Origin: Octopus vulgaris | Lineage: Eukaryota | NCBI GenBank assembly: GCA_951406725.2 | Contig: OX597823.1 | Span: 38,068,001 to 38,132,000, forward strand | Reading direction: 5' to 3' | Length of the DNA stretch: 64,000 nucleotides | In this document: in pieces, positions 14,819 through 60,909 of the stretch | How the letters are laid out: each line of letters begins with the position of its first letter | Position numbering within the stretch: position 1 is the first letter of the stretch | Translations under genes and position numbers: made by a program | Notes under the pieces: model-generated | Databases searched by the model: none | What the model saw: the letters and a program-made list of their open reading frames with translations, nothing else | Told to the model about the DNA's origin: nothing

Positions 14819-17324
14819 TTCATTAAATATTTCTTCCGAATCATTGCAAGAATTTAAACCAAAACATAATTTAAACAATTGTAAAAATGCCCTTTAAAGT
14901 CAAAAGTTCTGTCTTCCAATTTCCATGCATCTTTGAAAACTCATTGAAAAAAGGTTGGATAAATGATAAGTTGATATTTGAGATCTTTAGTTCTTGAAGC
15001 TGAAAAGAGAAAAAATAAATAAATAAAAATAAATAAATAAAAATGATTACAACAAAGGAAATATCTAAAAATCTATTTATTTAAAATCATCAATTTAATA
15101 ATCAACTATTATTAGATTTTCCTGCTAGTATTTAATTGTATATGTAAAAAGCTTAGAACCTAAAGAAGCCCACAAATGTCTGTTCTTACTATTATGGCCA
15201 ATCCAGTCGTGATCAATCCTTGTAACTGGGTTTGCTTCAAGCAAAAACCATGTGGTCGAAAAGCAAACTAGAAGTTTGCTTTGTAACTATGTGGTTTAGG
15301 GTTAATTCACAGTGTGTGCCAGAGGGCAGATGTCATCTACTGTGAAGGAAATTGGAAGACAGAAATTGTAAAATACCTGTCATATGTGTGTGTGTGCTTC
15401 TGTTTTCCCCTTGTCTTGAAGTTGCTAGTGGGCTATATAAAAACAAGATCAGTGTCTACACAAACAGTATCAGTGTTTACAACCTGGCATGAAAACATGT
15501 CCAGTCATTGAGCTGTCCATTGTTTGAAGGCTTAGGGAAAATATTATCTGACTTGAAAACAGGTAAGCAGTGTTAACAGAAAGAGCTGCCAGCTATAGAA
15601 AAACTGCCTCAATAAGTTTCATCTGTCAGCATGGAAAAATGGACATTAAAACGTTGATAATGGTATATGGTTAATGAAACTTCATTCACTATATTACACT
15701 TTACTCACTAATTCCTACCGATTCCTTCAATGGTAGCCAGAGGGCATCTGGTTACATGGATCATTCGGAGATCTCTGTGATGCTAATATTTCCAGTGGTT
15801 GTGGAAGGTTCAACATTCTTGTTGACATCTCCAATTCTCAGCAGATGTACTCACAAACACCAACAGATGTACACTGCAACAAAGAAGGCAGGAGTCTTAT
15901 ATGAACTGAGAAGAAAGAATTACTGACCACAATATGATCCATACCTTCTTCTTTGAGAAACATTGGTTGAGTAATGTAAACTTGGTGGACAGACTGAACA
16001 CAACTGATCTCAGAATGCATGGCTGTGTGGTTAACAAGTTTGCTTCCCAACTACATGGTTTTAGGAGTCCCACAGCAAGGCACTTTTGATCAGTGTCTTC
16101 TACTAAAGCCGTAGGCCAACTAAAGTTTTGTGAGTGAATTTGCTTGATGGAAACTGAAAGAACCCCATCCTATGTATGTGTGTGTTTGTATCACCTTGTC
16201 TTGACATTGTGTGTTTATTGTAAATGAATGTCACTGTCATCACAAGCAGTGTCATTCTGTTCTAAAATTCTGCAAAAATGTCTGGCTGGAGGGAAATATT
16301 ATTTTGCTTGGAAACAGATGAAGGCTGCCTATAGGAAGGGCATCTGACCACAGAAAATCTGCCTCAATATACTTTCATCTGACCCATGTAAGTATGGAGA
16401 AGTGGATGTTGAAATAATGGTGATGATGATGAAGTACTTTAAAATGGTAGAGGATAGCCTCTACAAAACAGAAGTGGACCAGAAAACTGGGAAGTGGAAT
16501 TTCAAAAAGATCTTAGACAAATATTCTCATGAAACATTCAACTATTTAAAGCAATAATAGATTCCTTCTGATAGGATACATTCTAGAATACAAAAGTAAT
16601 TTTCTTTTTGACAATATACAGTAAGTAAGGCAGTGAAGTTGAAGACTCAGTAAGTACCCTACAGTCCATTCTCACATCACATGCTGCCATGACAAACTTT
16701 GTCAGCCATCCAATTATGCACCAATTACCACCATCAATCATCTGAATCAGCTTTCTCATTACTTGTTACTACCTACTGTGTTGCTAGCTACAAAACAGAG
16801 AGGTTAAGCAATCCAAAGTCAATAAAATACCAGTCATACTTAAATCAATTGACTATAACCACTTCTATAGAAATTTATGACCATGTTCCAAATGTGACAA
16901 ATCAGTAATGTTGAATGTTCCAATCAGTCATGTGTGCAAGGAGACTGAGGACAGAGTTGGTTAAAAGTTGTGCTGCAGTATGGTGTGGAACTCTACTGCA
17001 CACCTCATCATGCAGTGTTAGGACCAGTGGAGTGCAATGTGACAGCCTAAACATGTGACAGTTTGTAGACATTTCTGGAAATTTGGTTGTCATGGTAATA
17101 ATAATATTTGATTTGGTCACTAAAGCATTAAACTTTGTTATTAGTTGATATTTTGATTTAATTGTACATTAAAGAGCATTGACAGGAATTGGGTAAGAGA
17201 GCAAGTAGAGCAGCGTTAGTTTTTGGTTGACATAAATGTATTACATTTATGATGATATTAAAATGTTCCATAAATGGACAAAATAGAAAACAAATAATTT
17301 TGCAACTGCATTATTATTATTATT

Positions 17325-25374: not shown

Positions 25375-28300
25375 TTTTGTATTTCCCACAAGGGGGCAAC
25401 ACAGAGGGGACAGTACAATCTGATATGAGGTCAGATTTAACGTATGAATTGTCACGAACTACTGAGTCGACGATGTGATCAATTTCAATGATCCACCTGA
25501 AGAAGCCAAGACCGAGGCCAAAACTGTGCTAGAATGGACACCAGGTAATGATGGTCTACCCTATGAAAAGCCTTTGATTGGTCTAAATGGACTACCGCCC
25601 CTCCCTTGCCAGAATCATTATTAAACCCCTCTACAGTGTACCGTAGAAGATGGAGATTATCCTGAATGGTTCTACCGGGAACGGCACATGTCTCTGCCTT
25701 CCTGATCAAGCCATCCGCGACACGCGCCAATCTTTTCGATAACACTTTGGCCAAAATCTTCAACTCTGTGTTTAGCAGAGTGATGGACCGAAAATTATCA
25801 ATGCAATCCCCCTTGTTCGGGTCCTTTCTGATAAGCATCACCACTTCCCGGCGCACAGATCTGGGAAAGAACGCTTCCTGCTGCCAGTTCGCATAGACAT
25901 TCGCCAGCAGGTGCCCGAACAAGTCTGGCATACTCTTATACAGTTCATAGGGTAGACCATCCAGTCCCGGCGCCCTATCCGCTATAGCCTCAATTACCTC
26001 TGCAGGCGTGATCGGCACTTCATAACACTCCGCGTCCTGCCCCGAGAGGTGCGACAGCCAGTCGAGGAAGTCCGTTAGGTTCTTCCTACTGTCGCCCTCC
26101 CCCCGAAAAGCTGGGCGAAGTGGTCCTGAAAGACCTCACACATCTCGGGCTCGTTTATCAACTAACCTCATTGGTTCGTCAAAGATCAAATTGTACCATC
26201 GTTGCCACGTTGGGCTTAGGGTTAGGGTTTGGCCTTGATTCCTTCCCAACCTAATGCACGAATCCTAACTCTGACAATTCAACCCATATGCTGGTTTAAC
26301 GACAGTCACTTGGCCGTCACCTGAGCTGCAGAGCCAGATTCCATTGCTTCCTCTAAGTCCTTAGTTCATGCTAATTCCTTCCTAGTCTCTCTAACCACTA
26401 AACCTATGCTATATCTAATGGCTCACTTGAGGGCATACCACCATTTGTTATTAATAACAGATCCTGTTAATGCCTTCTGAATCAATAACTTAATCCTGTC
26501 CCTGTACTCCTCAATCGCCAAAAGGGACGTATTAAGTTTCCAGTAGCCGGATCCTCTATTATATAACTTATCTATATCGAGCGTACAGGTGATCATTTTA
26601 TGATCACTGTATCTGACCGGGGAAAACTGTGGACACCTAGCAATATCCTTATCTGCTTTTCTAATTAACACCCTATCTCGGTATGACTTGGAAGATTCGT
26701 CGCTGTTTGACCATGGAGCGTTCGGAAATTCCAGCCTATAAGGATCTGCTAGCTCATAGCAGTTCCAGGAAGCAAGTCAACACGAATCAACATACACGTG
26801 CGTCGCAGATTGTGTTATAGTCTTCTAGCACAACTAAAGAATGTGATGTACCGAGAAACTTCTCCAGGTTCCGAAAATACTCACTTTGTCCGTTTTCAGC
26901 GGGTGCATAAATTGCAACCAGTCTGATAATCTTACCACGACTGAGCGTCAAATCCACGACGACCAGCCTACCTTCTGGATCTAAAAAAATTAATTTTTTC
27001 TCAGAAACCCGGTTTCTTTTTAATATTATCATCTTAATCCGGTCTCTGTACACCTTAATCGCCAAAAGGGATGTATTAAGTTTCCAGTAGCCGGGACCTC
27101 TATATAACTTATCTATGTCGAGCATACAGGTGACCATCTTGTGATCACTGTAGCTGACTGGATAAAACTGTGGACACCTAGCTATCTTCTTATCTACTTT
27201 TCTAATTAATACGCTATCTAGATAAGACCTAGAAGATCCATCGCTATTTGCCCATGTCCACAATGGAGCATTCGGAAATTTCAGTCTGTATGGATCTATC
27301 AGCTCAAAACGTCTTAGTAGATCCTGGAAGCAAGCATTACTTCTCCTATTAACACACGATCCAACATAATCTACGCGTGAATCGCAGATTGTGTTATTGT
27401 CTCCTAACACAACTAAGGGATGTGATGTACCGAGAAACTTCTCTAGGTTCCGATAATACTCAGTTTGCCCCGTATCTTGAGGTGCATAAATTGCAACCAG
27501 TTTGATAGTCTTACAACGGCTGAACGTCAAGTCAATGACGACCAGCCTACCTTCTGGATCTGCAAAAATCAACTTTTTCTCTTTTTAATAGGACCAACAC
27601 CCCGCTCCCGCTATGACGACAGCACGGAGAGATGAAACTCTCGTAACCGTCAAACAGCGGGAGCAGATCTTTTGGCCCCTTCAAACTTCTGTAGTAACAT
27701 CTAAATCCCGTGACCTGACGTCATTTAGGAGGCGTCCTTGCTTCCAACTAGACGTCAGGCAACGCACATTTATACATCCAACGTGAATGCTTGACATGGA
27801 CTTACCTTAGTCAGTGGTACTCTCTTTTTCACTGGTTCGTGGGGGTAATATTCTGACATAGGTCCTCGTACACTAACTCGTTAAAATCAAGTCTCGAAGG
27901 ACCCATGTCAGTTCGGTGGTAGTTTTTTAAGACGCGATAGTTCATTTATCTATTTTATAAATGGCAATATTTTCTGGAGATTTGTGGTGATGCTTGTAAA
28001 TTGACGCCGTTGGTATTAGCTTTAACCTTTTTTTTTAATTGTTCGTTATCATTGTTTATTGCAGCCAGTATTTCCTTATATTCGTTAGATTTTCTTGGAC
28101 TTGATATCGAGGACAGATAGCCTAGGCTTGGCGGGTGAGGGGTGATATCTGAGAAAGGGGGGAAATCCGAACTAGAGGGGCAAGGGGGGGGACTCATTGC
28201 CGAGGGGGGAATAGGATGGGGAGGAATCTGATATTGTTGACTTTTGGGGGGAATAGTGGTGGGGTGAGGTAATTTTTTTTAGTGTTCTGAGTTTTTCTTT

Positions 28301-29045
28301 TGGTTGTTGTAGGGTTAGATTGGTTGTTATTATTTCCCTTTTTTTGGTTCTTACTACCGACCAGCCGTCCTTTCCCCCGGCTTGTTGAACACCATCAGTG
28401 CCGGAGTTCTGCTGGTTGGTCTTTCGTTCTTTTTTTCTTCTCCTTTCTCCTTGGGGGTGAAGCAGTTTACCCGAATGTGACTTTTTTCTCCACATTCGTA
28501 GCATCTGGGTTTCCTGCCCTCCACCATTACCCGCAAGGTGGTTTCTCCGATGTGAATGTTCTCTGCAATTTCTTCTAACGTCTGGGGGTGGGGGGACGCT
28601 TGGACTATGGTCTCTAGCTCTTGGCCCCGCCAGTTCTGTTGTTGCATTCTGGAAGCTTCAATCATCTTGATTTTATCCTCAAGCCCCATTAGAAGGGCTG
28701 AGATAATCCAGATGTAATTTATTTCTGGTGGGGTTTCCTCAATAAGTACTTTTGATGTTCTCCTACCCATATAAGTTGGTAATAAAATGACTTCATTGGT
28801 TCTTATTGGTTGGAGCGAGTGTTTTATAGCCATTTCCTCATTTTTGAAGTACACCACTACTGTGACGCATCTTCTCCCTTTGGTCAATAACTCGATGTCT
28901 TGACAGATGGGTTGTAGACACTTCTCGATTTGTTCTTTGTATGCCTTGTCTATTTTCTTGTCTTTTATTATCATTGTCTTATATGTTACTATTTTCCTCT
29001 TTGTTTCTTCGATGAGTTCGTTAGGGAGGATGGCTTTAACATCAA
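25375..29045 (-). mobile_element. Tx1/L1-clade LINE (ORF1 with zinc knuckle, ORF2 APE plus partial RT), rearranged
   Basis: ORF1 CYECGEKSHIRVNC (28354-28974); endonuclease motifs IYAP, LGD.N, SYLD, SDH and GYWKLN; RT motifs APGLDGLP, FRSITLLN..LKILAK and LDQSKAF; 3' tail at about 25380-25420. Confidence 0.9.
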
Positions 29046-29049
29046 AACC

Positions 29050-29663
29050 GGATCTTTACCTTTTGACATACTGATTTTAAAAATAATTTTTTGTAACTAA
29101 ACACTTTCAAACTTCGGACACAGGCAGAATGTGTCATATAAAAGCATTTTTGAGAAAAACTTATATTTACGAAGTTATTTCACGTCAAAGTTCTTGTATT
29201 TCGGTAATTTCAACCAATCAATGACGTGTATTCAGCTGAATAAAATTATTGCCGTTGTTTGTCTACAACTATCAGCGGTGTATTTTTCATTTGTCACTGA
29301 TATTTATGACATCGTTCGTGCGTTTTTAGTGGTTTTAAGGTTTTAGGGTTAGGGTTACGGTTACGGTTTTAGGGCTAGGGTTAGGGTTTTCATAAATAAC
29401 AATGACAAACGAAATATACACCGCCGGAAGTTCTTGTTGACAAACAACAGCAGTAATTTTATTCAGCTGAATACACGTCATTAGTTGAAATTACCGAAAT
29501 ACGATAACTTGGACGTGAAATAACTTCGTAAATATAAATTTTTCTCAAAAATGCTAAGAGAAAAAGATATTTTATATGACACATTCTACTAGTGTCCGAA
29601 GTTTGAAAGTATTTAGTTACAAAAAATTATTTTTTAAATCTGTAGGTCAAAAGGTAAAGATCC
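29050..29663. mobile_element. Fold-back MITE with long inverted arms and a central TTAGGG-like tract
   Basis: Ends GGATCTTTACCTTTTGAC...GTCAAAAGGTAAAGATCC; arms of about 270 bp; TTAGGG/TTACGG repeats at 29335-29388. Confidence 0.85.
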
Positions 29664-31894: not shown

Positions 31895-32036
31895 AAATGC
31901 GTGACGACGAGACAAAGTAATTGAGAGATGTGGTGACAAACAGCTGGCTAATAGCTTCGCAGTGTTTAGGTTAGCTAAATCACGTGCTAAAATGGCGAAA
32001 TGAAATACACGTGTGCTTCCATACATGAAACTTTGA
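31895..32036 (+). promoter_or_regulatory. Candidate MOCS2 promoter and 5' leader
   Basis: E-boxes CACGTG at 31981 and 32008, YY1-like AAAATGGCG at 31989-31997, TGACG half-site at about 31902, CpG enrichment just upstream of exon 1. Confidence 0.55.
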
Positions 32037-32075
32037 ATGGACTACTCATTTGCAGAAAAAGAAGACCTAGTGAAG
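32037..32075 (+). CDS. MOCS2: MOCS2A (molybdopterin synthase sulfur carrier) exon 1
   Basis: ATG...MDYSFAEKEDLVK followed by the donor AAG|GTATGT; phase 0 matches exon 2; promoter-like context. Assigned by context, not homology. Confidence 0.65.
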
Positions 32076-38116: not shown

Positions 38117-40652
38117 ACTTTTTTAGCCAGAGGGGAAGCAGATAAGAAAAAATTTGCCAATGTTTTGCACCGTGAGGACCAAAGACATGAAGTATTTTGT
38201 GTTAAAAGACAGTGTGTGAGAGAGAATCGTGATGTAGGAGAGAAATGTGTTTGCATGGATGATGGTTCATTTGCACTAAACGAGGCTGCAAAGAGAGAGG
38301 TTTGGAGACGCTACTATGAAAGGTTACTGAATAAAGAAAATGAATGGGAAAAAGAGAGTCTACCCTATGTTGACCTAATAGGGACCAGCTATCCGAGTTG
38401 ACAGAATCTTGGTAGGTTAAGCAATTAAGAGTATGAAGACAGGTAAAGCCCCTGACCCATCAGGAATCACTGCAGAGATGCTCAAAATATCTTGCAGTGT
38501 TGGCTACAGCCTAGTCACCCGTATAGTTAACTAGGTGATACACAAAGGAGTCATACCCAATGACTGGTGTAGCAGCACTATAGTCAACTGCTACAAAGGA
38601 AAAGGTGATGCTTTAGATACAAATAATTACAGAGGTATCAAGTTGTTATATCAGGTAATGAAGGTTACAGAGAGGGTCATAACTCAACTAATTAGGGAAA
38701 AAGTCAGTTTAGATGAGATGCAGTTTGGGTTCGTGCCAGGGAAAAGTACCACTGATACTATATTTTTGGTAAGACAGCTGCAGGAGAAATACCTAGCCAA
38801 GGATAAACCTCTGTACCTGGCTTTTGTTGACATGGAGAAAGCCTTTGACAGAGTCCCCTGATCCCTTATCTGGTGGTCAATGAGGAAACTAGGGATAGAT
38901 GAATGGTTAGTGTGAGCTGTGCAAGCCATGTACAGAGACGCTGTCAGCAAGGTGAAGGTTGGCAACGAGTACAGTGAAGAATTCCGGGTAGGGGTCCACC
39001 AAGGTTCAGTCCTTAGCCCTCTCCTATTTATCATAGTCCTCCAGGCAATAACAGAGGAATTCAAGACAGGATTCCCCTGGGGGCTCCTCTATGCTGACAA
39101 CCTTGCTCTAATTGCTGAGTCACTATCAGAACTCGAGCAGAAGTTTCTGGTGTGGAAACAAGGATTAGAATCAAAGGGCCTTAGAGTCAACCTAGCTAAA
39201 ACCAAAGTCCTAATAAGTAGGAAGGCAGGCAAACCACAAATCCCTTCAGGTAGATGGCCCTGCTTGATCTGTAGAAAAGGCGTAGGTAGAAACTCTGTAA
39301 GATGTACCCAGTGTAAGCTATGGACACATAAGAGGTGCAGCAATATCAAAGGAAGGCTAACTGGGAAGATAGTTTTTGTCTGTGGCAGATTCTCTGGAGC
39401 AATAAACACTGAAAAATGTGCAGAGAACAACTTCCGCCACATTCCAGGGAGAAAAACTAGAAGTAGTTGATAGCTTCCGTTACCTAAGTGACCTAGTCAG
39501 TGGCAGGGGAGGGTGCACTGAAAGTGTAACTGCTAGAATAAGAATAGCCTGGGCAAAGTTCAGAGAGCTCTTACCTCTGCTGGTGACAAAGGGCCTCTCG
39601 CTCAGAGTAAAAGGTAGACTGTATGATGCTTGTGTATGAACAGCCATGCTACATGGGCTGTGACTGCTGAGGATATGCGTAAGCTTGCAAGGAATGAAGC
39701 CAGTATGATCTGATGGATGTGTAATGTCAGTGTGCATACTCGACAGAATGTAAGTACCTTGAGAGAAAAGTTGGATTTAAGAAGCACCAGATGTGGTATG
39801 CAAGTGAGACAACTGCACTGGTATGGTCATGTGGCGAGAATGGATGAGGATAGCTGTGTCAAAAAGTGCTGCACCCTAGTGGTTGAGAGAACCTGTGGAA
39901 AAGGTAGACCCAGGAAGACCTGGGGTGAAGTGGTGAAGCACGACCTTCGAACATTAGGCCTCACCGAGGCAATGACTAGTGACCGAGACTTTTGGAAATA
40001 TGCTGTGCTTGAGAAGACCTGGCAAGCCAAATGAGACCATAACCTCGTGGCATATGCTGGGGGTGTAACCAGCCCACTTATGCGTACCTTTCCTTCTTTG
40101 GACACAAAACTCTGCTTGCAAAGACCTGTTGAGGCAAGTGAAATCGAAATCAAATTTGATGACTGGCATCCGTGGTATGGAGTACTAAGAGCTTCATCTG
40201 AGCGTGATCGTTGATAGAGCGGCTAACTGGCTTCCGTGTCAGTGGCACGTAAAAGGCACCATTCGAGTGTGATCGTTACCAGCGTCGCCTTACTGGCACT
40301 TGTGCCCTGTGCTAGTGGGGCATGAAGAGCACCATTCGAGCGTGATCGTTGCCAGAGCAGCTAACTGGCTTCTGTGCCGGTGACACGTAAAAGGCACCAT
40401 TTGAGTGTGATTGTTACAAGCCTCGCCACACTGGCACTTGTGCCGGTGGCACGTGAAAAAACATCGAGCAAGGTCATTGCCAGTACCCATGCTAGTGGCA
40501 CGTAAAAGCACCCACTACACTCTCGGAGTGGTTGACGTTAGGAAGGGCATCCAGCTGTAGAAACTCTGCCAGATCAAGATTGGTTTGCCAGTCCTCAGTC
40601 AAATCGTTCAACCCATGCTAGCATGGAAAGTGGACATTAAACGATGATGATG
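38117..40652 (+). mobile_element. RTE LINE, 5'-truncated (RT, C-terminus, repeat-rich 3' UTR)
   Basis: YRGIKLL, QFGFVPGKSTTD, VDMEKAFDRV, GVHQGSVLSPLLF, LLYADNL and WYGHVARM; tail ends in (GAT)n. Confidence 0.95.
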
Positions 40653-43560: not shown

Positions 43561-43685
43561 GTAAATGTGCTGTTCTTTGCCAAAAGCCGTGAATTAGTTG
43601 GAGAAAATAGAAGTGAAATCAGTATCACATCGAGATCTGTCACTACTGACCAACTAACTTCCTTTTTATTGGAGACTTTTCCAAG
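43561..43685 (+). CDS. MOCS2: MOCS2A exon 2
   Basis: Pyrimidine tract plus CAG acceptor; VNVLFFAKSRELVGENRSEISI...FP matches the MoaD/MOCS2A pattern V.VLYFAKSAE; donor AG|GTAAAG. Confidence 0.93.
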
Positions 43686-45408
43686 GTAAAGTGAACAAGT
43701 GAGGTACTTAACTACAATATCAAATGTCACTTTTACTTTCTCATAATCAACGTTAATTTGTCATTCTGTCTTGTTACTTTAGAATGGATTGGTAACTTAA
43801 GTTCATATTGAAGAAGTTACAGTTCATAACTGTCACATGCAGTGCTATACTTTATTTCAAACTAAAACACAGTTCGCAACATCTCAGTTCATCTAGCTGA
43901 AAATGAGTATCATGAAAGATACAGTTCATTGCTGCACACTAGATTCTAGTTGTCTCTCATCTTTTGGATTACTTCACAAAAACTAACTAGCCTTTTCAGT
44001 GTCAGAAAATACTTCAGTAACGAATGGTAACCCTATACAAAGTTCAGATGAGATCGACAATGAAGGACTTTTCTCACTTCTTGGACAGTGCTGCTACTTT
44101 ACATTCAGCCATCCTAGAACTTCATCCACAATAAGCCTACCATCTGGTTTTAACTTATATAAAGTTATCCACCATCACAATCCATCCTCTGGATCATAAA
44201 CCTGCTGTATCATCTTTCTCTCTCTCTCTTTTCTGCCACTATTACATTGGTTACTGCTCCTCAGACAGCTCATGTTGATTAGTCTCATTCCATATGGTCA
44301 CAACAGGTGAGGATGAATTTCACAGAGATGGGGACTGACTGGGATACTGCTTGGAGAGTTGCCTAGGATGATCCAAGCAAATGCCAACAGCGCATGCCTC
44401 CATACCTGACCTTACCTCCTCTTCCTCCTCTGTCTCTATGATTGTTTTTCTCTCACTGTATGTCACATTCCTTAACTCATTGCCTGCCACCAAGCTTAGT
44501 TGTGTACGCATTGTACCTCTCTTATTTTAATTTTCTCTCTGTATCTCTTACTCTTTCTCTCTACCTACCTTTATATGACTGGAGAGACCAACCAACTGAC
44601 ATTTACATCAGCTGCTATTGTAGAGATAGCACAAGGGATAAAACATGAAATAAATAAATATACGAATGAGATAAAATAATATTTTTTTTTATAATCAAGA
44701 GAGAAAACAGTGCCCATGACCCTTTATAAGGCCTCAGAGATCAATGGGAGGGAGAGAGTATCCTCAGAAACCTGGTCCAAATGCTTACAATAGGGTGAAC
44801 TCTACTGAGATAATTTAAGGTCTCAGGTGGTGATGTTGTCAAGCTGGGAAACTGTTTAAATCTATCACCTTAGTAAGTTATGGTGGGATTTGAACTCAGA
44901 ATGCAAAGAGCTAGAATAACTACTACAAAGCATTTGGCCCAATATTCTTACAGCCTGCCAATCCATTTTTAACATGTGGTATGTATGCCCTGGTGGCTAG
45001 TTTCTGTAATGGAGATAATCACTTTTTTTTTGTTTTTCTCTTATGAAGATCTTAAGATTTCTTCTTATGAGTACTCCTGCATAACACTATTTCATTCTTA
45101 TTAAAAATCATCAGCATGACATAGCAAATTAAATAAATTAAACATTTTACAAAGCAAGGCATGACTTATAGATGGAAAATAATTGCAGTTTTATCAAGGA
45201 TGAAAAGGCAAAGTTGAACTGGTAGGATTTGAACTCTGGGTACAGTGAATCATTTCTGCAAGGCTTTGTAGCTAACACTTTAATAACTGTCAATTTGCCA
45301 CCATACTGAGAAATACCGATAAATATGATTACGCAGCTATTTAAAATCTACTTCAAAACTAGTTTACTACCATTAAAGTGTTGATATTGTTTATTTCTTC
45401 TTTTCTAG

Positions 45409-45532
45409 TTTAAAGCCTCTGAAACAGTCCATGATAATTGCTTTGAATGAGGAATATTTGTCTGAAGATGAAACCATATGTTTATCAAATGGAGATGAAA
45501 TTGCAATAATTCCTCCAATCAGTGGTGGATAA
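45409..45532 (+). CDS. MOCS2: MOCS2A exon 3 (exon continues to the donor after 45536)
   Basis: LKPLKQSMIIALNEEYLSEDETICLSNGDEIAIIPPISGG* with the diagnostic C-terminal diglycine; TAG acceptor at 45406-45408; donor GTGAGT at 45537. Confidence 0.96.
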
Positions 45533-45613
45533 TCCAGTGAGTACCTTAATCTATTGGATAATCCTATGAGTAGTTTAACATGTTTGATAATCCAATGAGT
45601 AATTTAATATATT
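45527..45613 (+). repeat. Three 29-bp tandem units spanning the MOCS2A stop and splice donor
   Basis: Units start at 45527, 45556 and 45585: [G/T]GATAATCC..TGAGTA..TTAA...[A/G]TT. Confidence 0.8.
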
Positions 45614-45635
45614 CAGTATTTGAGACACCCTTTAA

Positions 45636-45858
45636 CACTTTGCCTGTCCAAAGCATTTGTCCTAAAAGTCCATACTTGTTTTCAGATTTTTAGTTAGTCC
45701 TCGTTTCATATGTTCTGGGTAATATAAAACTTTCCTTTCATAAAAAACAAGTTGATCAGGTGGTTTAAAAAACTGGAAATTTATAATCATGTATGATGCA
45801 TGGATGTCAGAGAAATATGCCCTGTGTATCACAGGTGATGCACAAGATGGGCAAAGGG
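45636..45858. mobile_element. piggyBac-like MITE
   Basis: TTAA flanks on both sides; termini CACTTTGCCTGTC ... GATGGGCAAAGGG. Confidence 0.6.
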
Positions 45859-46419
45859 TTAAAAAGAAGTTTGTTTTTTTCATAAAACAATTGTTTTTGT
45901 TTTAATCAAATTTTTATCAATATCATCATCATCATCATCCAAATGATTTCGACATCAATTCCCATTATGTAAAACCCATGTTCTGTGTCATCACTCTAAA
46001 TTAGTTATATGTCTTACCATTAAAAGTCCTAGCTCCATCTCAATCATTCCTTTCTTCACTTCTAAAATGTGAATTGACTTGTCACTTCTCTACAACAAGT
46101 AGACCTGTTCTGCTCAGGTTCCTTCCCTTAATTCTTCACCTCATAGTATAAAGCAGTCCCCTCAATGTCCATAGTCATGCAGACTGCATGCAAACATCAC
46201 TGGTGCCAGTGTTATGAAAAAGGCAGCCAGTATGTTGTAAAGCGGTTGGAATTAGGAAGTGTATCCAGCGATAGAAACCATACCCAAATAGATAATTGAG
46301 CATGATACAGTTTTTGTACTCATTGGATCCTGTCAAACCACCAATTGCAAACCAGCATGGAATATGGACATTAAATAATGATGATATCTCCTAAAAGAAC
46401 AAGATCATTGCATTAACCA

Positions 46420-47018
46420 GTATCATAAGTCTGGTACTTATTTTATTAATCTCCTTTTGCTGAACTGCTAAGTTACAGGGATATTAACACAACAACACCA
46501 GTTGTCGAGCAGTAGTGGGAAACAAACCCAGACACAATGACCCCTCCCCCACTATATGTATATATGATGGACTCTCCCATTGAAGACAATGTATGAGCAT
46601 TCAGTTTCTGCTGAATGACATGCACAAATGATATGTTTATAGTGATCAAATGTTTGTGCTGCACATTAGCTCACTCTCACTATCAAATCAATGTTGTCTG
46701 AACAGATGCACTGTGTGCCGCACATCAGGTGCAAAGTGATTGCAGAGCAATGCAAGATGAAGTGTTTTGGTCAAGAACACAATGCACCACCCGGTCTAGG
46801 AATTGAACTCACGATCGCTAGATTGCGAGTGCAACACCCTAACAGCTAAGCCATACGAAATACTTCTTTCAGTTTCTGTGTATTGAATCCATTCACAAGG
46901 CTTTGGTCGGCCTGGGGCTATAGTTGGAGACACTTGCCCAAGGTGCTACACTGTGTGTCTGAACTTGAAACCATGTAGTTGAGAAGCAAACTTCTTACCA
47001 CACTGCCATACCTGCACC
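46420..47018 (-). mobile_element. Degenerate SINE family A with a nested tRNA-headed SINE
   Basis: Family A head at 46865-47015 and tail at 46420-46530; second tRNA-like head at about 46790-46855 on the minus strand. Confidence 0.55.
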
Positions 47019-48056
47019 TATAAGTTTCAATAAAACAAAGAGTACCCTTATGTTGATGGAGCCTGTTGTAACTAATGGAAATATTTTGACATCTTGAATG
47101 AATTTTGTCTGTCACAAGCTGCTCAAGAGAAGCAGAATTTCAGAATGCAAATCTGACACTGAGAAACAGTTCATTGATGGTCTTGTCTTGTCCAGCAATG
47201 AAGGCATAGCTAGATTGTGTACTGCCTTGGGTAGTCCTTGGATATGCTATGCCCTCCAACTCTTGTCCTGCCCCCTATACAGTCTTATATGCCAGACTCC
47301 AAAATACTACCCCCATAAAAGTGTTACTTGGGGCAGATCCCCAACCTCACTAGCTGTGTTTCTGCAGAAATCTGTTAATAAATGTTTTAAAAGGTATTGG
47401 TTGTTTAGATGTTTAGTTCCAGATCAGTTCTGTTGGTATATTTAAGACTACACTGTCAAATGTGTCTTTTCTCTTTTTAAAGTGGTAGGCTGTTATAGGA
47501 AGGGAATTTGGCTTTTACTTCTAGTAGATCACACTACTACATAGAGACTCACTTGATGATTTCATCATCATCATTTTAATGTCCACTTCTCCATGCTTGC
47601 ATGGGTTGGATGGAGTAGATTGAGGCATTTTTTCTCTAGTTGTATGTCCTTTCTGTCACCAGCCCTCACCTGTTTCTGAGTTAGGTAATATTGCCCTTCG
47701 TCAAACATGTTCTTGCAGAATATCAGAAATGAATGATGTGTGTGTTTGACAGTGAAACTCATTTACAACTATCATGTGATGTCAACACAAAGAGATATAA
47801 CCATACACATTCTCTCTCCCCCCCTCTCTCTCACACACACACATACACTTCTAAATAGATATATACAACAGGCTTCTTTCAGTTTCTGTTAAAAGATCGT
47901 AAAACTTTGATGTAGTTTCAGAAAAGGAAGATGACCAGAAATCTTTAAACTGATTGCATAGACAAAATAAATGATGATTATTTAAACATTTTGATAGGTT
48001 TTATTTTTTGTTAACTTTATCTGGTTTTTGTTATATTTTCTTTATTAGTTTCTGCA

Positions 48057-48156
48057 ATGACTGACATCGTGGAATTATCTAATGAGAAATTGAATGTTGA
48101 GGACATTTCAAAATCTGTCACTTTACCAAATTGTGGTGCTGTATCACTATTTATTG
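48057..48156 (+). CDS. MOCS2: MOCS2B (molybdopterin synthase catalytic subunit) first coding exon (exon starts at 48049)
   Basis: MTDIVELSNEKLNVEDISKSVTLPNCGAVSLFIG matches MoaE/MOCS2B CGAISLFVG; TAG acceptor at 48046-48048; donor G|GTAAGA. Confidence 0.93.
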
Positions 48157-51029
48157 GTAAGAGTTTTTAGTGTATGACATTAATTAGTCATTCATGTTTA
48201 AACCTTTAGCATTTAAACCAGCGATATTGAGCTAAAATATTATACCTGTTTTATGTTAAAACTGGCCTGATCCAGCCTCTCATATCTACCTTACAGTATA
48301 ATTTTAAAAAGAAATAATCACATCTTTGAAATCTCAAATTACAAGATAATACATGATAAGGTGTGAGAGACCAGCTCCGGCCACATTGTACAAGGAAAGG
48401 AAAGGAAAAGAGAGGAGAGAAAAAAAAAATGGAGAAAAGAAATGAAGGATAGAAAGTGAAAAAAATGTCATAATTTATGTGTGTTTATATATATATATAA
48501 TTATCATTTTAATGTCTATGGGTTGGACAGTGTTAATTGAGGCAGTTGGAAATAGGTGATGGATGGTGAGAGAAAGGGTATCTGGCCATAAAAGATCATC
48601 ATCGGACGTTAAATGATGATAATGATGATCTTTTACGGCTAGATACCCTCTCCCTCACCAACCATCACTTATTTCCAAGCAGGGAAATATTTTTCTCATG
48701 GTCAGACATGTTCTTGCAGACTATTGGAGATGAATGACAGTGATAATTGTTTAAACTGTCATGTGATATCATGAGAATGAGACACAAACATACACATTCA
48801 CTCTCTCACACACACACATGACATGATTCCTTTAGTTTCCATCTACTAAATCAGCTCACAAGGCTTTGGTTGACTTGAGGCATCTGCAAAAGTGCCATGC
48901 AGTGGGGCTGAACCTGAAACCATGTGACTGGAAAGCAAACCTCTTAATAACGCAGCCACACCTGCACATATATGTATGTGGATGTGTTTTCTTGTCTTGA
49001 CATCACCTGATTGCTGTAAACAAACATCGTTTGCTTGGAAACAGGTGAGGGCTGATGACAAGAAGGGCATCTGGCCATAGAAAATCTGCTGCAGTGAATT
49101 ACATCTGATCCATGCAAGCATTTATATTCTGATCCCTGTACCTTGAGGGTATACCCTGGCACACCACCACCATCTTTCTTTTGCTCTCACCCTTTTTCTC
49201 TCTTGCACTCTCACACTGTCATTCTTGATCACACTCTCACTTTTTCTCTTCCTTTGATTTGGTATCTCCTCTACAGCAAGACATCTGTTTCTGTTCCTCT
49301 AACATACTCTAACCTCTCATCACCTGGCACAAGGCCACCTCCTCCAGTACTCCTTCCACTCTTGAAGGTTCTTTGTCTTGCAAGTTACTTGGTGACCCCA
49401 CCAGTGCTGGTCCACACTGTAAAGTAGTTGGCATTTAGAAGGGTATCCAGCTGTAAAAATCATATCAAAGCAGACCTTGCCAGTGCTGGTGCCAAATAAA
49501 AAGCACCCAGGCCACTTTGAAAAGTGGTTGGCATTATGAAGGGCATCCAACTGAAAAAAAAAACCATGCCAAAGCAGATCTTGCGGGTACTGGTACCATG
49601 TAAAAAGCACTTAGACCCCTCTGTAAGGTGAATGGCATTAGGAAGGGCATCCAGCAGTAAAAACCATGCCAAAATAGACAATGAAACCTGGTGCAGTCTT
49701 CTGACTTGTCAGCTCCTATCAAACTATCCAACCCATGCCACCCTGGAAAACGGATGTTAAATGGTGGTGATGATGGTTGTATGGCGATAGGCTTAGAGTT
49801 TACATTTAAATAAGAAAGAAAGACTTAAAAAACTGTACAGTTGCATCTATGTCCCACTCCCCTACCATCCAGTTTGTCCCCTAGTACTTGTATAAAATTT
49901 TCAACTGCCCACAGGAGGTGGTACTACTTGGTGGAAATGGTCAAGAATCTATTGAGATGGGGATGGTGGTGGTTGTATATAGGAAGATGATAGTGTTGGT
50001 GAGAGGTGTGTTATCATTGTTTGTGTTGACATGATGAGAATAATTATGATCATAACTTGATTCACTCAAAATATTGGTGCCATCTGGAATTTTCTGCTAA
50101 ACAAAGAACACAGTACAGTAGAAGAAGATCTGCTTTGTCATTTTTACAGACAAGTAATTTATAATCTCCTCCTTCAAATCTGCAACAAATGACCACGATA
50201 AAATATGTCTGCTAATATTAAAGAATCTTCATTGAATATTAGAACATACAAGAGGAAAAAAAAAACATCCATTACAGCTTGCTAAATAATTTTGTAATGC
50301 TTAATAGGAATGATAAGAAATGAACAAACATTACAACAACAAAGAAATAGTACAAGTTCTGCAAATTTTTATTATTATTATTTTTTGCATTGCTCACAAA
50401 AGACAGACAACAGTTTAAAGAGCAGAACACTTGTGTGATATCACATAGAATAATATTTTGTGCAATGCAACATGACAGACTGTGCTAGAAGACAAGAGGA
50501 GGAAATGAGAGATGTGTACATATGATGTCGAGTATGGTGCTGATTTTCTAAGAAACAATGAAAGGCAGCAGAATTGTAACTTATCAGAAGTTTCCTAGAA
50601 TACTAATGAGATGAAGTAGAATGATCTTCTAAGGAATATGGAAAGCATGGAATAAATAAATAAATGTTGTATATGAATATTTAGTAGTAGCTGTTACCTG
50701 CTATTTCAAGAGAGATTTAGGTGTGTGCGTGTGTATGCATGCGGTTGCATAGGAATATATATATAAATATGTATATATATAAGTTCTTTGTAAAGCATAT
50801 TATGTATGTAATATGTATGTGTGTGTGTGACAGAGAGAGAGAGATTGTCACTTTACCTTGACATTGCATGCTTGTTGTAAATGAATGTCACTATCATGAA
50901 AGTGGTGTCCTTTGTTTCTGGTCTTCTGTGAAAACATGTCTAGTTATAAGGAATTAATGCCTTACTTGGAAGCAGGTATGGGTTGATGATAGGAAGGGCA
51001 CCTGACATGCCTATTCTATAATCATCATC

Positions 51030-52130
51030 ATCATCATTTAATGTCCATGCTGGCATTGGTTGGACAGCTTCACCAGGGTTGGCAAGCTGGAAGGCTGCAC
51101 CAAACTCCAGTCTGATTTTGCATGGTTTCTATGGCTGGATGCCCACCCTAACACCAATCACTCTGAGAGTGTAATGGGTGTTTTTATGTGCCACCAGCAT
51201 AAGTGCCATTTGTGTGACACCAGTATCTGCCATTACTGCGATTTTGCTCAGCTTGATGGCTCTTTTTCTCAAGCATGACATAATGCCAAAGGTTTTGGTC
51301 ATTGCCTCCATGAGGCCCAACACTTGAAAGGAGCTCAGCCACTTTGCCTCAATGAGGCCCAATGCATGAAAGGTGCTCTTTACATGCCACCTGCATGGGT
51401 GCCAGTTACATGACACCAGCATCAGCCACAACTACAATTTCACTTGGCCTGATGGGTCTTTTCAAGCACAGCATATCACCAAAGGTCTTGGTTATAGTCA
51501 TTGTCTCTGTGAGGACCAAAGTTCAAAGATCATGCTTCTTCACCTTGTCCCATGTCTTCCTGGATCTACCTCTACCCCAGGTTCCCTCTGCTGTTAGAGT
51601 TTGGCACTTCTTTACACAGCTGTCTTCGTCCACATGAATGACATGACCATACCAGCACAGTCGTCTCTCTTGCATACTAAATTTGAGGCCTCTTATGCCC
51701 AACTTTTCTCTGAAAATGCTTGCACTCTGTTGAACATACACACTGACATTACACATCCAGTGGAGCATACTAGCTGCATTTCTTTCAAGCCTACACATGT
51801 TCTCAGCTGTCACAGCCCATGTTTCACTGCCATATAGCATAGCTGTTTACACATAGGCATCATACAATCTGCCTTTCACTCTGAGAGAGAGAGAATCCCT
51901 TTGTTGCTAGCAGAGGTAGGAGCTCTCTGAACTTTGCTTAGCCTAATCTTATTCTCATAGCTATACTCTTGGGGAATCCATCTCTGCTACTGACTTGGTC
52001 ACCTAGGTAACAGAAGCTATCTACTATCTCTAGCTTGCTCCATTGACAATTTTTGGTGTTTATTGTACCTGTGCATCTTCCACATACAAAAGCTATTTTC
52101 CATGTTAACCTTCCTCTGATATTGCTAATA
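51030..52130 (-). mobile_element. RTE LINE 3' fragment
   Basis: MLYGSETWAVTAE...RRLCWYGHV...RGRSRKTW plus 3' UTR. Confidence 0.9.
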
Positions 52131-55059
52131 ATCATCGCATTTGGCAGAGTAGTCTGAATGCCAAAGGGTTAATGTCTGCTTTCCATGTTGGCATGAGTTG
52201 GACAGTTTGACATTGAGCTGGCCAGACTCCGATTGTCTGTTGTGGCATGGTTTCTACAGGTGGATATCTTTCCTAATGCCAACCACTTAATAGAGTGTGC
52301 TGGGTGCTTTTTACGTGTCTCTGGCACGTGTGCATTTACATAGTGCTGGCACAAGTATGTTTACACAGCACTGGCACAGGTGCTTTTTATGTGGCACCAG
52401 CACCTGAAAGGACAAGCCTATATATGTGCAAGACAACAGTTTTACTTAGTTTGACATGTCTTATTAAGTACAGCGAAGTGCCACATCTCTTTTTTCCTTG
52501 TCATTTCCTCAGTGAGGCCCAGGGTCTGAAGATTCTTTCTCACAAGCAAAAAGACTGTTTAATCAAGTGAAATTGCACCCATATGAAAATAAAAATTGTT
52601 AGCGTTAATGACAATTCAGTAAAGAGGTTAAGGGAGAGTAATTTGAAATATGAATTGATCAAAAAATTAAATTATATCATGCAGTGAGGAGCAAGTGTGA
52701 TATTTTGTAGTGACAGTGTTAAATGAGGACATGTTACAGTCTTATTGTATCACTCTTTCTCTCTCCCCATACACACATATTGTAATCCTAGCTGGCCCAT
52801 GTCCTATGAGCAGGATATATAGTACCTGCTGTCAACTATCATCCAGCAACCACACTTGGTCATACAGACTCATGTAACTTGACATCACCAAACGCTGTGG
52901 TAACTGTTGTTGAAATATTCACCCTACAGAATGTTGACTGATAACAGCATCCTGTTCTATCATGTGGAGTATGCAGTAGTAAAATGCTGACATCATATCT
53001 CCTCTACTACATGGAGCATAGTGAAAGGATTGCTGTTGCTAAAATGTCATACTCTATGTTGACTAACTGACACAAATATCCCATCTATCTTACCATTAGG
53101 AGTTTACAATGAAACAACTGCTAGTACTAAGATAGTTAACACACCCAAACTGACCAATGGTAGCCCAAATACTTTGAACAATCTGACAAAGGAGATGACA
53201 ACAAAACCTAACAAACGGCAAGATGTTGTTTTGGAAAAGGATCTTTCAAATCCATGCAGGCATAGAAAAGTGGACACTAAAGTGATACTTCATAGTATTT
53301 GTTCTAACCCTCCTACCAAAAGCCTCAAATCCAACCAAAGGCCTCAACATTTTCTTTCATCTTTATGGAGTCAATAAAAAAATGTATTTATCCAGAGCAA
53401 TGGATTAATAAAACTTAGAAGATTGGATAGGCTACCTTGCATGATTTTTTTTTGGCTCTTTGTGTTCTGACAACAACTGTGAAAACATTGGTGTCAAGTT
53501 GGAAGAGTTAAAATCAGTGACCTTTCCCTTGGATAAACATTGGTAGCCTAGAGGTGGAGAAACTTACATGTCTGGGTAATTGCTTCATTTTCTCAAAAAT
53601 GTTTTACCCAGGCTTGCACATACATATGTAGATGCATAATAAACATTGACTGATGGAGGTCCTACATCGTCATTGTTTTTATGTCCACTATATTAATGTA
53701 GATGGGAGATACAAGACAAAATAGTGAAGACCAACTTTAAGATGTTGAAGTGATGATAAACTATTGAGATGATCGACAAGTTGCTGTACATGAGAAGACC
53801 CATCCATCTTGGCAGAAATGAAGTCCTAAAAGTATATTGTTTTGATAAAGCCTTGCACTTAAGCCATCCCCACAGTTCATCTTCTCAGCATCCACCCCTG
53901 TATTCTCAGTATCATTCCCTATCACTATTGAGCAGCATCTCATATCAATTATTAATGACACCTAGCTTTTTGTTTATCACCCACTGTATTCACCCATTAT
54001 ACCTCTAATCTCCATCCCTGTCACTGTGCTCCCTCCCTCTCTACCCCACACTTCACATCATCTTCCTCTTTCTCTTTTTTACAGTTCTATTACAATACTG
54101 CTCTCCCCTCCCCCTTTTTGTATTGCTATTTCTTCCTCCCTGACCTATCCCTAGTTCCTTCACATTCCCTTACCTCTACTGACATTCAACATTGACCATG
54201 CCTCCATACCTGTAAGCCAGCCACTGCATTCACTTATATCCTTACTTTTAACCGTCTGTCACTCATCTTTCTATCACAAACTTAACTGGGATGGTTATTA
54301 CCTCACTTGAAAATAGATGGGAGTTGGCTTCGGGAACATGGTCTTGTCTAACCCACACAAGCATAGGAAAGTGGATATTAAAATGATGATGATGATGATA
54401 ATGATATGCATGTGTGTTTGTCTCTCACCACCTGACAACTAGTGTTAGTTTCTTTACATCCCCATAACTTAGCGGTTCTGCAAGATGAGATCAATAGAAT
54501 AAGTATCACACTTTAAAAGTAAGTACTGGAATCAATTTGATTGACTAAACCCTTCATAGTGGTGCCCCAGCATGATTGTAACCCAATCATTGAAACAAGT
54601 AAAAGATTTAACAGTGTATGTGTCATTCATCATCATGATACACACACACACACACACACCTGTCTGTCATATTGCTGGTAACTTTGGAAGAATACTTTTG
54701 CAACTATGGGAAATATCAGGAAATATGGTATATACTCTCAACTATAATTTAACTTTTATCAAATTATATAAAATGATGAAAAGAATACTAATTAAGACAG
54801 TATTTATTACCTTAAAATAAAATTATAATAAAGTTCTCATTTTTATAACCCTAACTACAACTACTCTGTCATTTACCCCCTCTCATCCTTTCCTCTGTCT
54901 CTAATTCTTTCTCTCACTCATCCTGTACCTCTTATGTTTACTCTCTCTATTTCTCCTTCACTTCCTTTTCCCCCCTCTCTCCCCATATGAGTTAAATCAT
55001 GACTGGAGAAATCAACCAATCAATAACCTTTATATCAGCTATTATATATTCATAAGGAA

Positions 55060-55419: not shown

Positions 55420-55570
55420 GTACCACTCGTGATCATTTTGATGGCAAAGAGGTGTTAAGCTTGCAGTATGAAGCATACCATACAATGGCTAAAAAGAAAA
55501 TGTTTGAAATTTGTCAAGATATACGCAACAAATGGAATGTTGGAAAAATCGCTCTTGTACATAGATTAGG
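55420..55570 (+). CDS. MOCS2: MOCS2B coding exon 2
   Basis: [51 protein letters not shown]; canonical AG/GT; phases consistent. Confidence 0.96.
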
Positions 55571-55629
55571 GTAAGCATGATTTTCCTGATTATTTAAAGT
55601 TTGTTTTTCTGGGTTTTGTAAGTTGTCAG

Positions 55630-57190
55630 AATCTGTGATAGAATACTTAAGCTTAGACTAGTGCTGCAATATGGTTTAGCAACAATTATCTCAGTTTATG
55701 CCCTTCAGCCAAGGCTACCTGATGAACAGAAAGATCATTTTTATGACACCTTCTTGCAGACTACCTCATCAACAAATAACAGGGACTTTCTCTTTGTGGC
55801 TGGTGACAACATCCAGCAAACTTCCATGGTGTACGGATTTGGCTCCTGTAATGAGGAGGGAGCCAGGCTGCTGGAGTTCTGTGATGCAAATGATCTTATG
55901 ATCTGTAATGTTAACTTCAAGAAACCTGCCAGTCACCTGTTCACCTACCAATCTGGTGGACACACTAGCCAGGAAGCGGGAACATAGGTTAGAAGTTAGA
56001 AGCAAGGATCAGTCTTCAGCCTCCTCTTATTCATCATAGTCTTCCAGGCAATAACAGAGGAATTCTAAACAGGCTACACCTAGGAACTCCTTTATGCTAA
56101 TGACCTTGTTCTAATAACTGAGTCACTACCAGATCTAGAGAAGTTTCAAGTGTGGAAGCAAGGTCTAGAATGAAAGGGCCTTAGAGTCAATCTAGCAAAA
56201 ACCTAAGTCTTAGTAAGTAGGAAGGCAGACAAACCATAAATCACTTCAGGTAGTTGGCCCAGCTCGATCTGTAGGAAAGGTGTAGATAGAAACGCCATAA
56301 GATGTACCTGGTGTAAGCTATGGATACATAAGAGGTGCAGCAATATCAAGGAATGGTTAACTGGGAAGATAATTTTTGTGTGTGGCAGATGCACAGGGGC
56401 AATAAACACTGAAACTGTGCAGAGAGCAGCTTCCATCACATGCCAAGAGGAAAAACGAGAAGTAGTTGATAGCTTCCGTTATCTAGGTGACCAAGTCAGC
56501 AGTGGAGGTGGATGCTCTGAGAGTGTAGCTACTAGAATAAGAATAGCCTAGGCAAAGTTCAGATAGGTCTTATCTCTGCTGGTAACAAAGGGCCTCTCGC
56601 TCAGAGTGAAAGGTAGATTGTATGATGCATGTGTGTGAACAGCCATGCTACATGGTAGTGAAACATTGGCTGTGACTGCTGAGGACATGTGTAGGCTTGA
56701 AAGAAATGAAGTTAGTATGCTCTGCTGGATGTGTAATGTCAGTGTGCATACACGGCAGAGTGTAAGTGCCCTGAGAGAAAAGTTGGACACAAGAAGTATC
56801 AGGTGTGGTGTACAAGAAAGACAACTGCACTGGTATGGTCATGTTACATATGGATGAGGACAGCTGTGTAAAGAAGTGCTGATCTCTACCTGTGGAAGAG
56901 GTAGACCCAGGAAGACCTGGGATGAGGTGGTGCAGCACAACCTTTGAACGTTGGGCCTCACTGAAGCAATGACAAACAACCGAGACCTTTGGAAATATAC
57001 TGTTTGAGAAGACCTGGCAAGCTAAGTGAGTTCGTAGCTATGGCATATGCCAGTGTTGCATAACTGGCCCATTTAAGAGTTCCCTTCAATCGTCGGGAAA
57101 TGTGCTGTGCTTGAGAAGACTTATTGAGTCAAGTAAAATTGCTGTCATGGCTGATGCCAGTACTACCTGACCGGCACCCCTGCTGGTGGG
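55630..57190 (+). mobile_element. Internally deleted RTE LINE (endonuclease piece joined to RT and C-terminus)
   Basis: ISVYALQ...NEEGARLLEFC at 55661-55987 jumps directly to QGSVFSLLLF at about 56004. Confidence 0.9.
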
Positions 57191-57724: not shown

Positions 57725-57848
57725 TGAAGTCCCTGTTGCTGAAGCAAGTGTTATTATAGCCATCTCTTCAGAACACCGCAAGGAATCTCTTGAAGCAGTT
57801 CAATATGCCATTAATACACTGAAGGCTGTAGTGCCTATTTGGAAAAAG
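57725..57848 (+). CDS. MOCS2: MOCS2B coding exon 3
   Basis: [41 protein letters not shown]; canonical AG/GT. Confidence 0.96.
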
Positions 57849-60756: not shown

Positions 60757-60846
60757 GAACTTTATCGGAGCAGTTCACCTGAGTGGAAAGAAAATACAGA
60801 ATACTTTTGGAAGAAGGAAGGATGTTGCAATTTCAAAATGCTCTAA
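60757..60846 (+). CDS. MOCS2: MOCS2B last coding exon
   Basis: ELYRSSSPEWKENTEYFWKKEGCCNFKML*; CAG acceptor; completes WKKE...WKEN.E.FW. Confidence 0.92.
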   Translation, partial: ELYRSSSPEWKENTEYFWKKEGCCNFKML

Positions 60847-60903
60847 CAATTTATTTTTAGTGATAAACAGTTTTTCTAAACAATATCCAATATTTTAAAA
60901 GGG

Positions 60904-60909
60904 AATAAA
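60904..60909 (+). terminator. Candidate MOCS2 polyadenylation signal
   Basis: AATAAA about 60 nt after the stop, followed by a T-rich tract. Confidence 0.5.

Follow-up and report, generated by a model that had tools for sequence, protein, structure and literature searches.

How is the second protein of an animal MOCS2 transcript translated when its reading frame does not overlap the first? MOCS2 is a textbook two-protein animal messenger RNA (mRNA). It encodes the sulfur carrier MOCS2A and, further downstream, the catalytic subunit MOCS2B, and the production of both has been explained from the human gene by an overlap between the two open reading frames (ORFs) combined with leaky scanning. 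We analysed a stretch of 64,000 nucleotides (nt) from Octopus vulgaris (assembly GCA_951406725.2, contig OX597823.1, positions 38,068,001 to 38,132,000 of the forward strand; hereafter the window, in which position 1 is the first letter). This window contains a MOCS2 gene in which the two ORFs are separate. We regard octopus MOCS2 as one variant of a two-protein gene that has long been known, and tentatively propose that its second protein is made from a shared mRNA by leaky scanning followed by reinitiation after short ORFs.

The DNA confirms that MOCS2A is followed by a non-overlapping MOCS2B. The gene has seven exons on the forward strand, all within the window, and each of its six introns is of the GT-AG type. 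MOCS2A consists of 95 residues counted from the ATG at 32037, belongs to the ThiS family (Pfam ThiS, E = 2.5e-10 on the MOCS2A part of protein P0004) and has the C-terminal end DEIAIIPPISGG, in which PPISGG is followed directly by TAA. MOCS2B, encoded on the same strand, consists of 154 residues and belongs to the MoaE family (Pfam MoaE, E = 7.2e-39 for the downstream ORF); 152 of these residues are identical in the O. sinensis protein and two differ. The coding part of exon 1 (32037–32075) starts with the MOCS2A ATG in a weak context (T at −3, G at +4), ends at the donor AAG/GTATGT and matches the N-terminus of the public protein model CAI9728984.1. Exon 2 (43561–43685, 125 nt) continues MOCS2A. 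Exon 3 (45409–45536, 128 nt) encodes the C-terminal part of MOCS2A and contains six internal ATGs, the stop codon TAA at 45530–45532 and the first 4 nt of the spacer between the two ORFs. This spacer is interrupted by intron 3 (45537–48048, 2512 nt) and resumes with 8 nt of exon 4 (48049–48156), which also contains the MOCS2B ATG at 48057 (G at −3, A at +4). The remainder of MOCS2B is encoded by exon 5 (55420–55570), exon 6 (57725–57848; left out of O. sinensis isoform X2) and exon 7 (60757–60909), with the stop codon at 60844–60846 and an AATAAA at 60904. The public models of O. sinensis, O. bimaculoides, Argonauta and Sepia contain MOCS2B alone, and all begin at the same start as exon 4 provides here. 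With exon 2 alone as the query, none of three candidates proved to be an annotated MOCS2A, which is weak evidence. Finally, we can eliminate a paralog or retrocopy as the source of MOCS2B, because MOCS2 is single-copy in the assembly: a search with MOCS2B returned four matches, all of them exons of this same locus, and a search with exon 3 returned one.

The TAA stop codon directly follows two glycine codons, and exon 3 ends 4 nt further on at 45536 (CCA/GTGAGT). Splicing of this donor to 48049 would place the MOCS2B ATG 12 nt behind the MOCS2A stop, in the same frame and without overlap. A first-pass annotation of this DNA had described exactly this arrangement, and for the predicted splice the DNA bears it out, although a shared frame has a prior chance of one in three. 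The splice signals make the 45536–48049 junction a strong prediction. Scored by its pairing energy with the 5' end of U1, donor 45536 forms a duplex of −7.1 kcal/mol. This value lies within the range of the gene's other five donors (−6.5 to −8.9 kcal/mol) and is reached by 4 of the 144 GTs in intron 3. The acceptor AG (48047–48048) follows a stretch of 49 bases that contains no AG, and it is preceded by a tract of 75% pyrimidines and a branch-like TTAAC at 48011. CAI9728984.1 uses the same acceptor with a different donor (after 45524). The splice signals fit and the public model links exons 1–7; both ORFs are predicted to reside on one mature mRNA. A search of sequencing runs for this DNA listed no RNA run that contains it: 20 of 24 rows had part of the stretch, and 17 of these were small shares guessed to be RNA, which do not count as evidence. 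The spliced junction has a computed fold of −20 kcal/mol over 115 nt, a value obtained without a control and not used as evidence. The region of the stop codon and donor occurs in three tandem 29-bp copies (45526–45613, forward strand). In copies 2 and 3 AT stands where the donor has GT. The change produces two ATGs (45566 and 45595) with a weak GT behind each; both ATGs would be in frame with MOCS2B if spliced to 48049. We rejected them as MOCS2B starts because their GT donors score only −4.1.

A ribosome scanning this mRNA would meet several start codons before it reaches MOCS2B. The MOCS2A coding sequence contains exactly seven internal ATGs, where at least seven had been claimed before: one in frame (45431) and six out of frame (43565, 45447, 45468, 45478, 45489 and 45495). 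Position −3 is a pyrimidine at five of these seven. Among 10,000 synonymous shuffles, the number of out-of-frame ATGs averaged 3.9 ± 1.0, with a probability of 0.04 for six or more; hence, they are not depleted in the natural sequence. Because of this lack of depletion, pure leaky scanning, which would have to pass the MOCS2A start and each of the seven internal ATGs, is unlikely, as the first-pass annotation had argued. The six out-of-frame ATGs open ORFs of 10, 20, 13, 6, 6 and 4 codons, and all of them end before the MOCS2B ATG. Four share a stop located 35 nt before the MOCS2B AUG, and one more stops 46 nt before it.

Is this arrangement special to the octopus gene? To answer this question we turned to other loci. 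Three of 64 parts of a metagenome scan were read and gave 80 loci, of which 78 looked prokaryotic by score and layout. The other two (L001 and L002) were used for comparison and were taken as animal, more precisely arthropod-like, because their MOCS2B carries a long C-terminal extension (L001 810–1142, L002 3500–3800; likely an MBIP domain) that can be aligned to MOCS2B from copepods and insects. A scan of viral contigs returned none from 24 candidates, and a scan of prokaryote genomes returned three bacterial loci. L001 is a contiguous contig of 1143 nt with a MOCS2A of 85 residues, four internal ATGs and a spacer of 80 nt; its MOCS2B is nearest to a copepod MOCS2B among 14 named proteins. 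L002 is a genomic contig with a MOCS2A of 94 residues, one internal ATG, a spacer of 125 nt and no apparent intron between the two ORFs. At both loci the ORFs do not overlap, the spacer is 2 modulo 3 and hence out of frame, and the ORFs that start at internal ATGs also end before MOCS2B. Spacer length and frame are not conserved among these three loci, and the 12-nt in-frame spacing is not common to the two DNA comparators. In Drosophila, MOCS2A has been catalogued as a conserved upstream ORF (uORF) of MOCS2B, 90 amino acids long and with matches to a bird expressed sequence tag (PMC2276209), and Mocs2 is curated as a conserved dicistronic pair (PMC4528330). Non-overlap with internal ATGs is thus no peculiarity of the octopus.

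The annotated N-termini of MOCS2B extend this comparison to vertebrates. For 51 named proteins, picked by hand from 122, we counted the residues between the annotated start and the FxGTTR motif (four by eye, where the motif pattern failed; clear fusion models were left out, as were most entries that were unnamed or nearly duplicate). This distance is 30–38 residues in 39 of the 44 non-mammals (31 in octopus) and 45–57 residues in three corals, a turtle and a sturgeon. The seven mammals comprise three proteins with 73 residues, one with 87, and three models of 203 residues that unite the front half of MOCS2A with MOCS2B. Among the surveyed proteins, the N-terminal extension that underlies the human overlap occurs in placental mammals only. 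The methionine at position 36 of buffalo and deer MOCS2B matches the residue at which the protein begins in birds, reptiles, amphibians and fish; the tenrec protein lacks this downstream methionine. In human numbering, position c.244 of MOCS2A equals c.57 of MOCS2B (PMC12289762), and the MOCS2A stop occupies c.265–267 (PMC9607355). From these published numbers we computed that codon 36 of human MOCS2B begins 25 nt after the MOCS2A stop. Because this codon matches the non-mammalian start and lies past the MOCS2A stop, the 77-nt overlap of human MOCS2 looks like a mammalian extension, as far as annotated proteins, whose starts may be misannotated, can be trusted. Non-overlap, in turn, looks like the animal norm. 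Given L001, L002, Drosophila and the N-terminus survey, the translation puzzle created by non-overlap and internal ATGs would appear to be general to invertebrate MOCS2. Our literature search, with most subscription papers outside reach, found nothing on the structure of mollusc MOCS2 or on the translation route of invertebrate MOCS2B. Fused models of MOCS2A and MOCS2B also occur in unicellular holozoans and a red alga (P0029, P0066 from Capsaspora, P0155 from Ichthyophonus and P0150 from Porphyridium). These models imply that the two ORFs are adjacent there too, so the linkage of A before B may predate animals.

How, then, may MOCS2B be translated? Since the ORFs of L001 and L002 are non-overlapping, out of frame and 80 or 125 nt apart, animals must have a route that depends neither on a short spacer nor on a shared frame. 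The leak-then-restart route that we tentatively favour would have this property and would also fit L001 and L002. The main spliced mRNA would carry MOCS2A and, 12 bases on, MOCS2B. Ribosomes that initiate at the MOCS2A ATG would produce MOCS2A, the sulfur carrier, with Gly-Gly free at its end. Others would slip past this weak start, initiate at one of the tiny out-of-frame ORFs within MOCS2A and, after leaving it, restart at the MOCS2B ATG. A minority of the ribosomes that translate MOCS2A may restart at MOCS2B as well. Reinitiation drops as the first ORF lengthens, and eIF3 is reported to persist for 12 (half-length) to 60 codons (PMC10275272). This length dependence favours the ORFs of 4–20 codons over the 95-codon MOCS2A. 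The spacer varies among animals, and its 12-nt in-frame form would then be a chance product of this lineage. This proposal builds on exons, stop codon, spacer, frame, ATG contexts and short-ORF lengths that can be read from the DNA, and from these we infer the splice, the shared mRNA and the translation route.

The interpretation offered in the first-pass annotation survives in part. The non-overlap and the implausibility of straight scanning stand; a special status of this gene and reinitiation after the full-length MOCS2A are not supported. The latter does not follow, given the weak MOCS2A start, the alternative of 4–20-codon ORFs and the lack of a viral-type reinitiation motif (see below). 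That account also lacked the combined leak and restart, exon 1 (which lay outside its range) with the ATGs upstream of it, and the fusing donor of the public model.

Several observations weigh against the leak-then-restart route. The out-of-frame ATGs are not depleted, and the absence of any overlap with MOCS2B amounts to a coin toss: some out-of-frame ORF overlaps MOCS2B in 51% of the shuffles and none does in 49%. For these two reasons, no selection for a short-ORF route is visible. Distances of 35–46 nt are short for classical reinitiation. In each of O. sinensis and O. bimaculoides, a single MOCS2B sequence carries two protein accessions, which suggests transcript variants that differ outside the MOCS2B coding sequence. 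The sole O. vulgaris model found is an A-B fusion. Finally, the comparison loci number two, both arthropod-like and neither from a mollusc.

Three more ATGs lie just 5' of the MOCS2A start (31992–32036, forward strand) and represent candidate uORFs. The ATG at 31992 (A at −3, G at +4) opens three codons. The ATG at 32000 opens 35 codons that overlap the MOCS2A start out of frame. The ATG at 32025 opens three codons, the TGA of which abuts the MOCS2A ATG. In the same region (31981–32039) these ATGs are preceded by TCACGTG and AAAATGGCG, which we take to be E-box-like and YY1-like, respectively. Together, these elements and ATGs suggest a nearby start site and possible control of MOCS2A by uORFs.

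Instead of sharing an mRNA with MOCS2A, MOCS2B could come mainly from other transcripts in which an alternative first exon, an internal promoter or the skipping of exon 3 or of exons 2–3 leaves few or short ORFs before the MOCS2B AUG. We regard this explanation as possible, if somewhat unlikely. The duplicate accessions for identical MOCS2B proteins in both annotated octopuses are consistent with it, and so is the sequence itself. Joining exon 1 to exon 4 would reduce MOCS2A to a 16-codon ORF with a TGA that overlaps the MOCS2B ATG, and would bring the upstream ATG at 32000 into frame with MOCS2B, whereas skipping exon 3 would create a 59-codon ORF ending at 48062. In human MOCS2, A and B are assigned to transcript variants 1 and 3 (PMC12289762), an "exon 1a" has been described (PMC8107882), and the 203-residue models from cat, sheep and deer join the first half of MOCS2A to MOCS2B. 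On the other hand, the N-terminally extended MOCS2B of 182 residues is absent among the octopus proteins found, and L001 contains both ORFs on one short contiguous contig.

Coupled termination-reinitiation, in which ribosomes that complete the 95-codon MOCS2A restart 12 nt on at MOCS2B, is in our judgment unlikely. Its geometry is attractive: the MOCS2B AUG is the first AUG past the stop, has a purine at −3, and follows a coding sequence without depletion of internal ATGs. A UGGGA upstream of the stop codon is the hallmark of a termination upstream ribosome-binding site (TURBS). The MOCS2A coding sequence and the spacer contain no TGGGA, and we rejected a TURBS-type signal for this reason, although 12 nt falls within the 20-nt stop-start window of the TURBS-type viral cases (PMC10275272). 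Further support comes from the conserved uORFs of Drosophila, whose lengths peak at 81–100 amino acids (PMC2276209), and from Chlamydomonas, where short unstructured junctions support a downstream ORF, presumably by reinitiation (PMC5144980). Coupling of the CASQ2 type, which involves an overlap with a run of aspartates (PMC3923131), was also rejected, because the octopus ORFs do not overlap and MOCS2A ends in the sequence given above rather than in an aspartate run. Human MOCS2 even serves as a leaky-scanning control in the same study. Finally, the 80- and 125-nt spacers of the other animals exceed the coupling limit of roughly 30 nt.

More doubtful is a third explanation, according to which the two proteins are supplied by alternative splicing at the junction. 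Two weak donors lie upstream of the main one (45522–45530, forward strand): a GT at 45525, which is 12 nt 5' of the main donor, and a GT at 45522, which is 15 nt 5'. Splicing after 45524 or 45521 would delete the Gly-Gly-stop and join A to B in frame, affording proteins of 250 or 249 residues. The exons of the window translate letter for letter to CAI9728984.1, which is labelled Octopus vulgaris, if the donor after 45524 is used, and this model, a 250-residue fusion with the junction PPIS-VSAM and without Gly-Gly, arises from no other donor. In this scenario the main splice would supply MOCS2A only, and a minor splice would supply the catalytic activity as a fusion. Octopus MOCS2 would have converged on the solution known from MOCS1, the in-frame spacer would have been kept for that purpose, and such fusions would recur across animals. 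Among the alternatives, this is the sole one that gives the in-frame spacing a function. The geometry is that of human MOCS1 type II, where non-overlapping ORFs are fused through an exon shorter by 15 nt that drops the Gly-Gly-stop in about 4% of transcripts (bioRxiv 10.1101/429183). Fusion models designated "isoform X" are on record for sheep, deer, a coral and a skate. The models from cat, sheep and deer (P0030, P0035, P0047), from Montipora (P0015) and from Leucoraja (P0121) splice the first half of MOCS2A in frame to MOCS2B and resemble MOCS1 type III.

Against fusion splicing stands, first of all, the quality of the donor. The GT at 45525 has 5 of 11 consensus matches and a pairing energy of −4.6 kcal/mol, equalled by 13 of the 144 intronic GTs, and falls outside the range of the six real donors. 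Neither the hits nor the cluster members included a fused protein of O. sinensis or O. bimaculoides, even though a minor isoform that skips exon 6 is annotated, and the Argonauta and Sepia entries are MOCS2B alone. A-B fusion models account for 18 of the 122 proteins, 13 of them without Gly-Gly. Their junctions are mostly different, several are from vertebrates and several end inside PP(I/L)SGG. These features form the pattern expected of gene finders that avoid a stop codon. By its title, the work of Gray and Nicholls from 2000 reportedly describes MOCS1 fusions that arise through diverse splices, so varied junctions in MOCS2 do not prove an artefact. Taken together, the CAI9728984.1 fusion is probably a gene-finder join.

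Readthrough of the UAA, or its recoding by double adenosine-to-inosine editing, could in principle produce a MoaX-like precursor that retains Gly-Gly and is cleaved after it. The spacer is open and in frame, the product would have the layout of many MoaD-MoaE fusions with Gly-Gly kept and a short linker, and editing is extensive in cephalopods. Nevertheless, we consider this route very improbable: UAA followed by U is a poor context for readthrough, editing would have to convert both A's, none of 18 inverted repeats found in 45000–48300 has an arm over the stop, and the frame differs in L001 and L002. For the MoaX of Mycobacterium tuberculosis, cleavage is reportedly required for activity (PMC4326299).

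Elsewhere in the window, the reverse strand contains a stop-free frame of 522 codons (13328–14893) without a Pfam match. Pieces of retrotransposons of the long interspersed nuclear element (LINE) type, with matches to reverse transcriptase and endonuclease, lie at 25488–29055 (reverse strand) and 38535–40034 (forward strand), and similar broken copies, judged by eye, near 51500–52170 and 55620–57030.

These data suggest that mammals added the overlap from which MOCS2 translation has been explained. In most animals the ORFs would be non-overlapping, with AUGs between the two starts, an arrangement for which the literature searched offered no tested mechanism. With its 12-nt in-frame spacer and a competing donor, octopus MOCS2 provides a compact test case for short-ORF reinitiation versus coupled reinitiation versus fusion splicing. 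As a practical point, the fused public protein of O. vulgaris, which lacks the catalytic Gly-Gly, is probably mis-annotated.

The nearest known counterparts of this arrangement include other MOCS2 genes. In Drosophila, as in octopus, a MOCS2A that ends in Gly-Gly (Mocs2A, CG42503; 90 amino acids) is located upstream of MOCS2B (Mocs2B, CG10238), on a single fly transcript and as a conserved uORF (PMC2276209, PMC4528330). In contrast to octopus MOCS2B, the fly protein contains an MBIP domain (PMC5817353), and the octopus spacer holds an intron. Human MOCS2 shares with the octopus gene the seven exons, the location of A on exons 1–3, the order of A before B (PMC9607355) and the same domains. The human gene has a 77-nt out-of-frame overlap, created by a 35-residue N-terminal extension of MOCS2B that we saw only in mammals, whereas the octopus ORFs are non-overlapping and in frame, with seven ATGs between the starts.

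Further counterparts lie outside MOCS2. Human MOCS1 types I and II also have non-overlapping ORFs with a Gly-Gly-stop near an exon end, and an exon shortened by 15 nt (12 or 15 in octopus) fuses them in frame without Gly-Gly (bioRxiv 10.1101/429183). The MOCS1 fusion was demonstrated with cDNA; for its octopus counterpart there is a single public gene model, and the donor is weak. MOCS1 also produces fusions by skipping a whole exon; the equivalent skip in octopus MOCS2 would be out of frame. Fused MoaD-MoaE proteins of the MoaX type have the same order, the same frame and a short linker past Gly-Gly. In contrast to octopus MOCS2, with its intact TAA at 45530 and a public fusion that lacks Gly-Gly, MoaX is a single ORF. 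Finally, protein-coding uORFs of about 100 amino acids ahead of a second ORF form an established class (PMC13303939). Mammalian bicistronic mRNAs of this class, such as SLC35A4 (103 amino acids), MIEF1, ASNSD1 and PIGY, resemble octopus MOCS2 in that a functional protein of about 100 residues precedes a second functional ORF. In SLC35A4-class mRNAs the two proteins are unrelated, whereas in octopus they are the two subunits of one enzyme.

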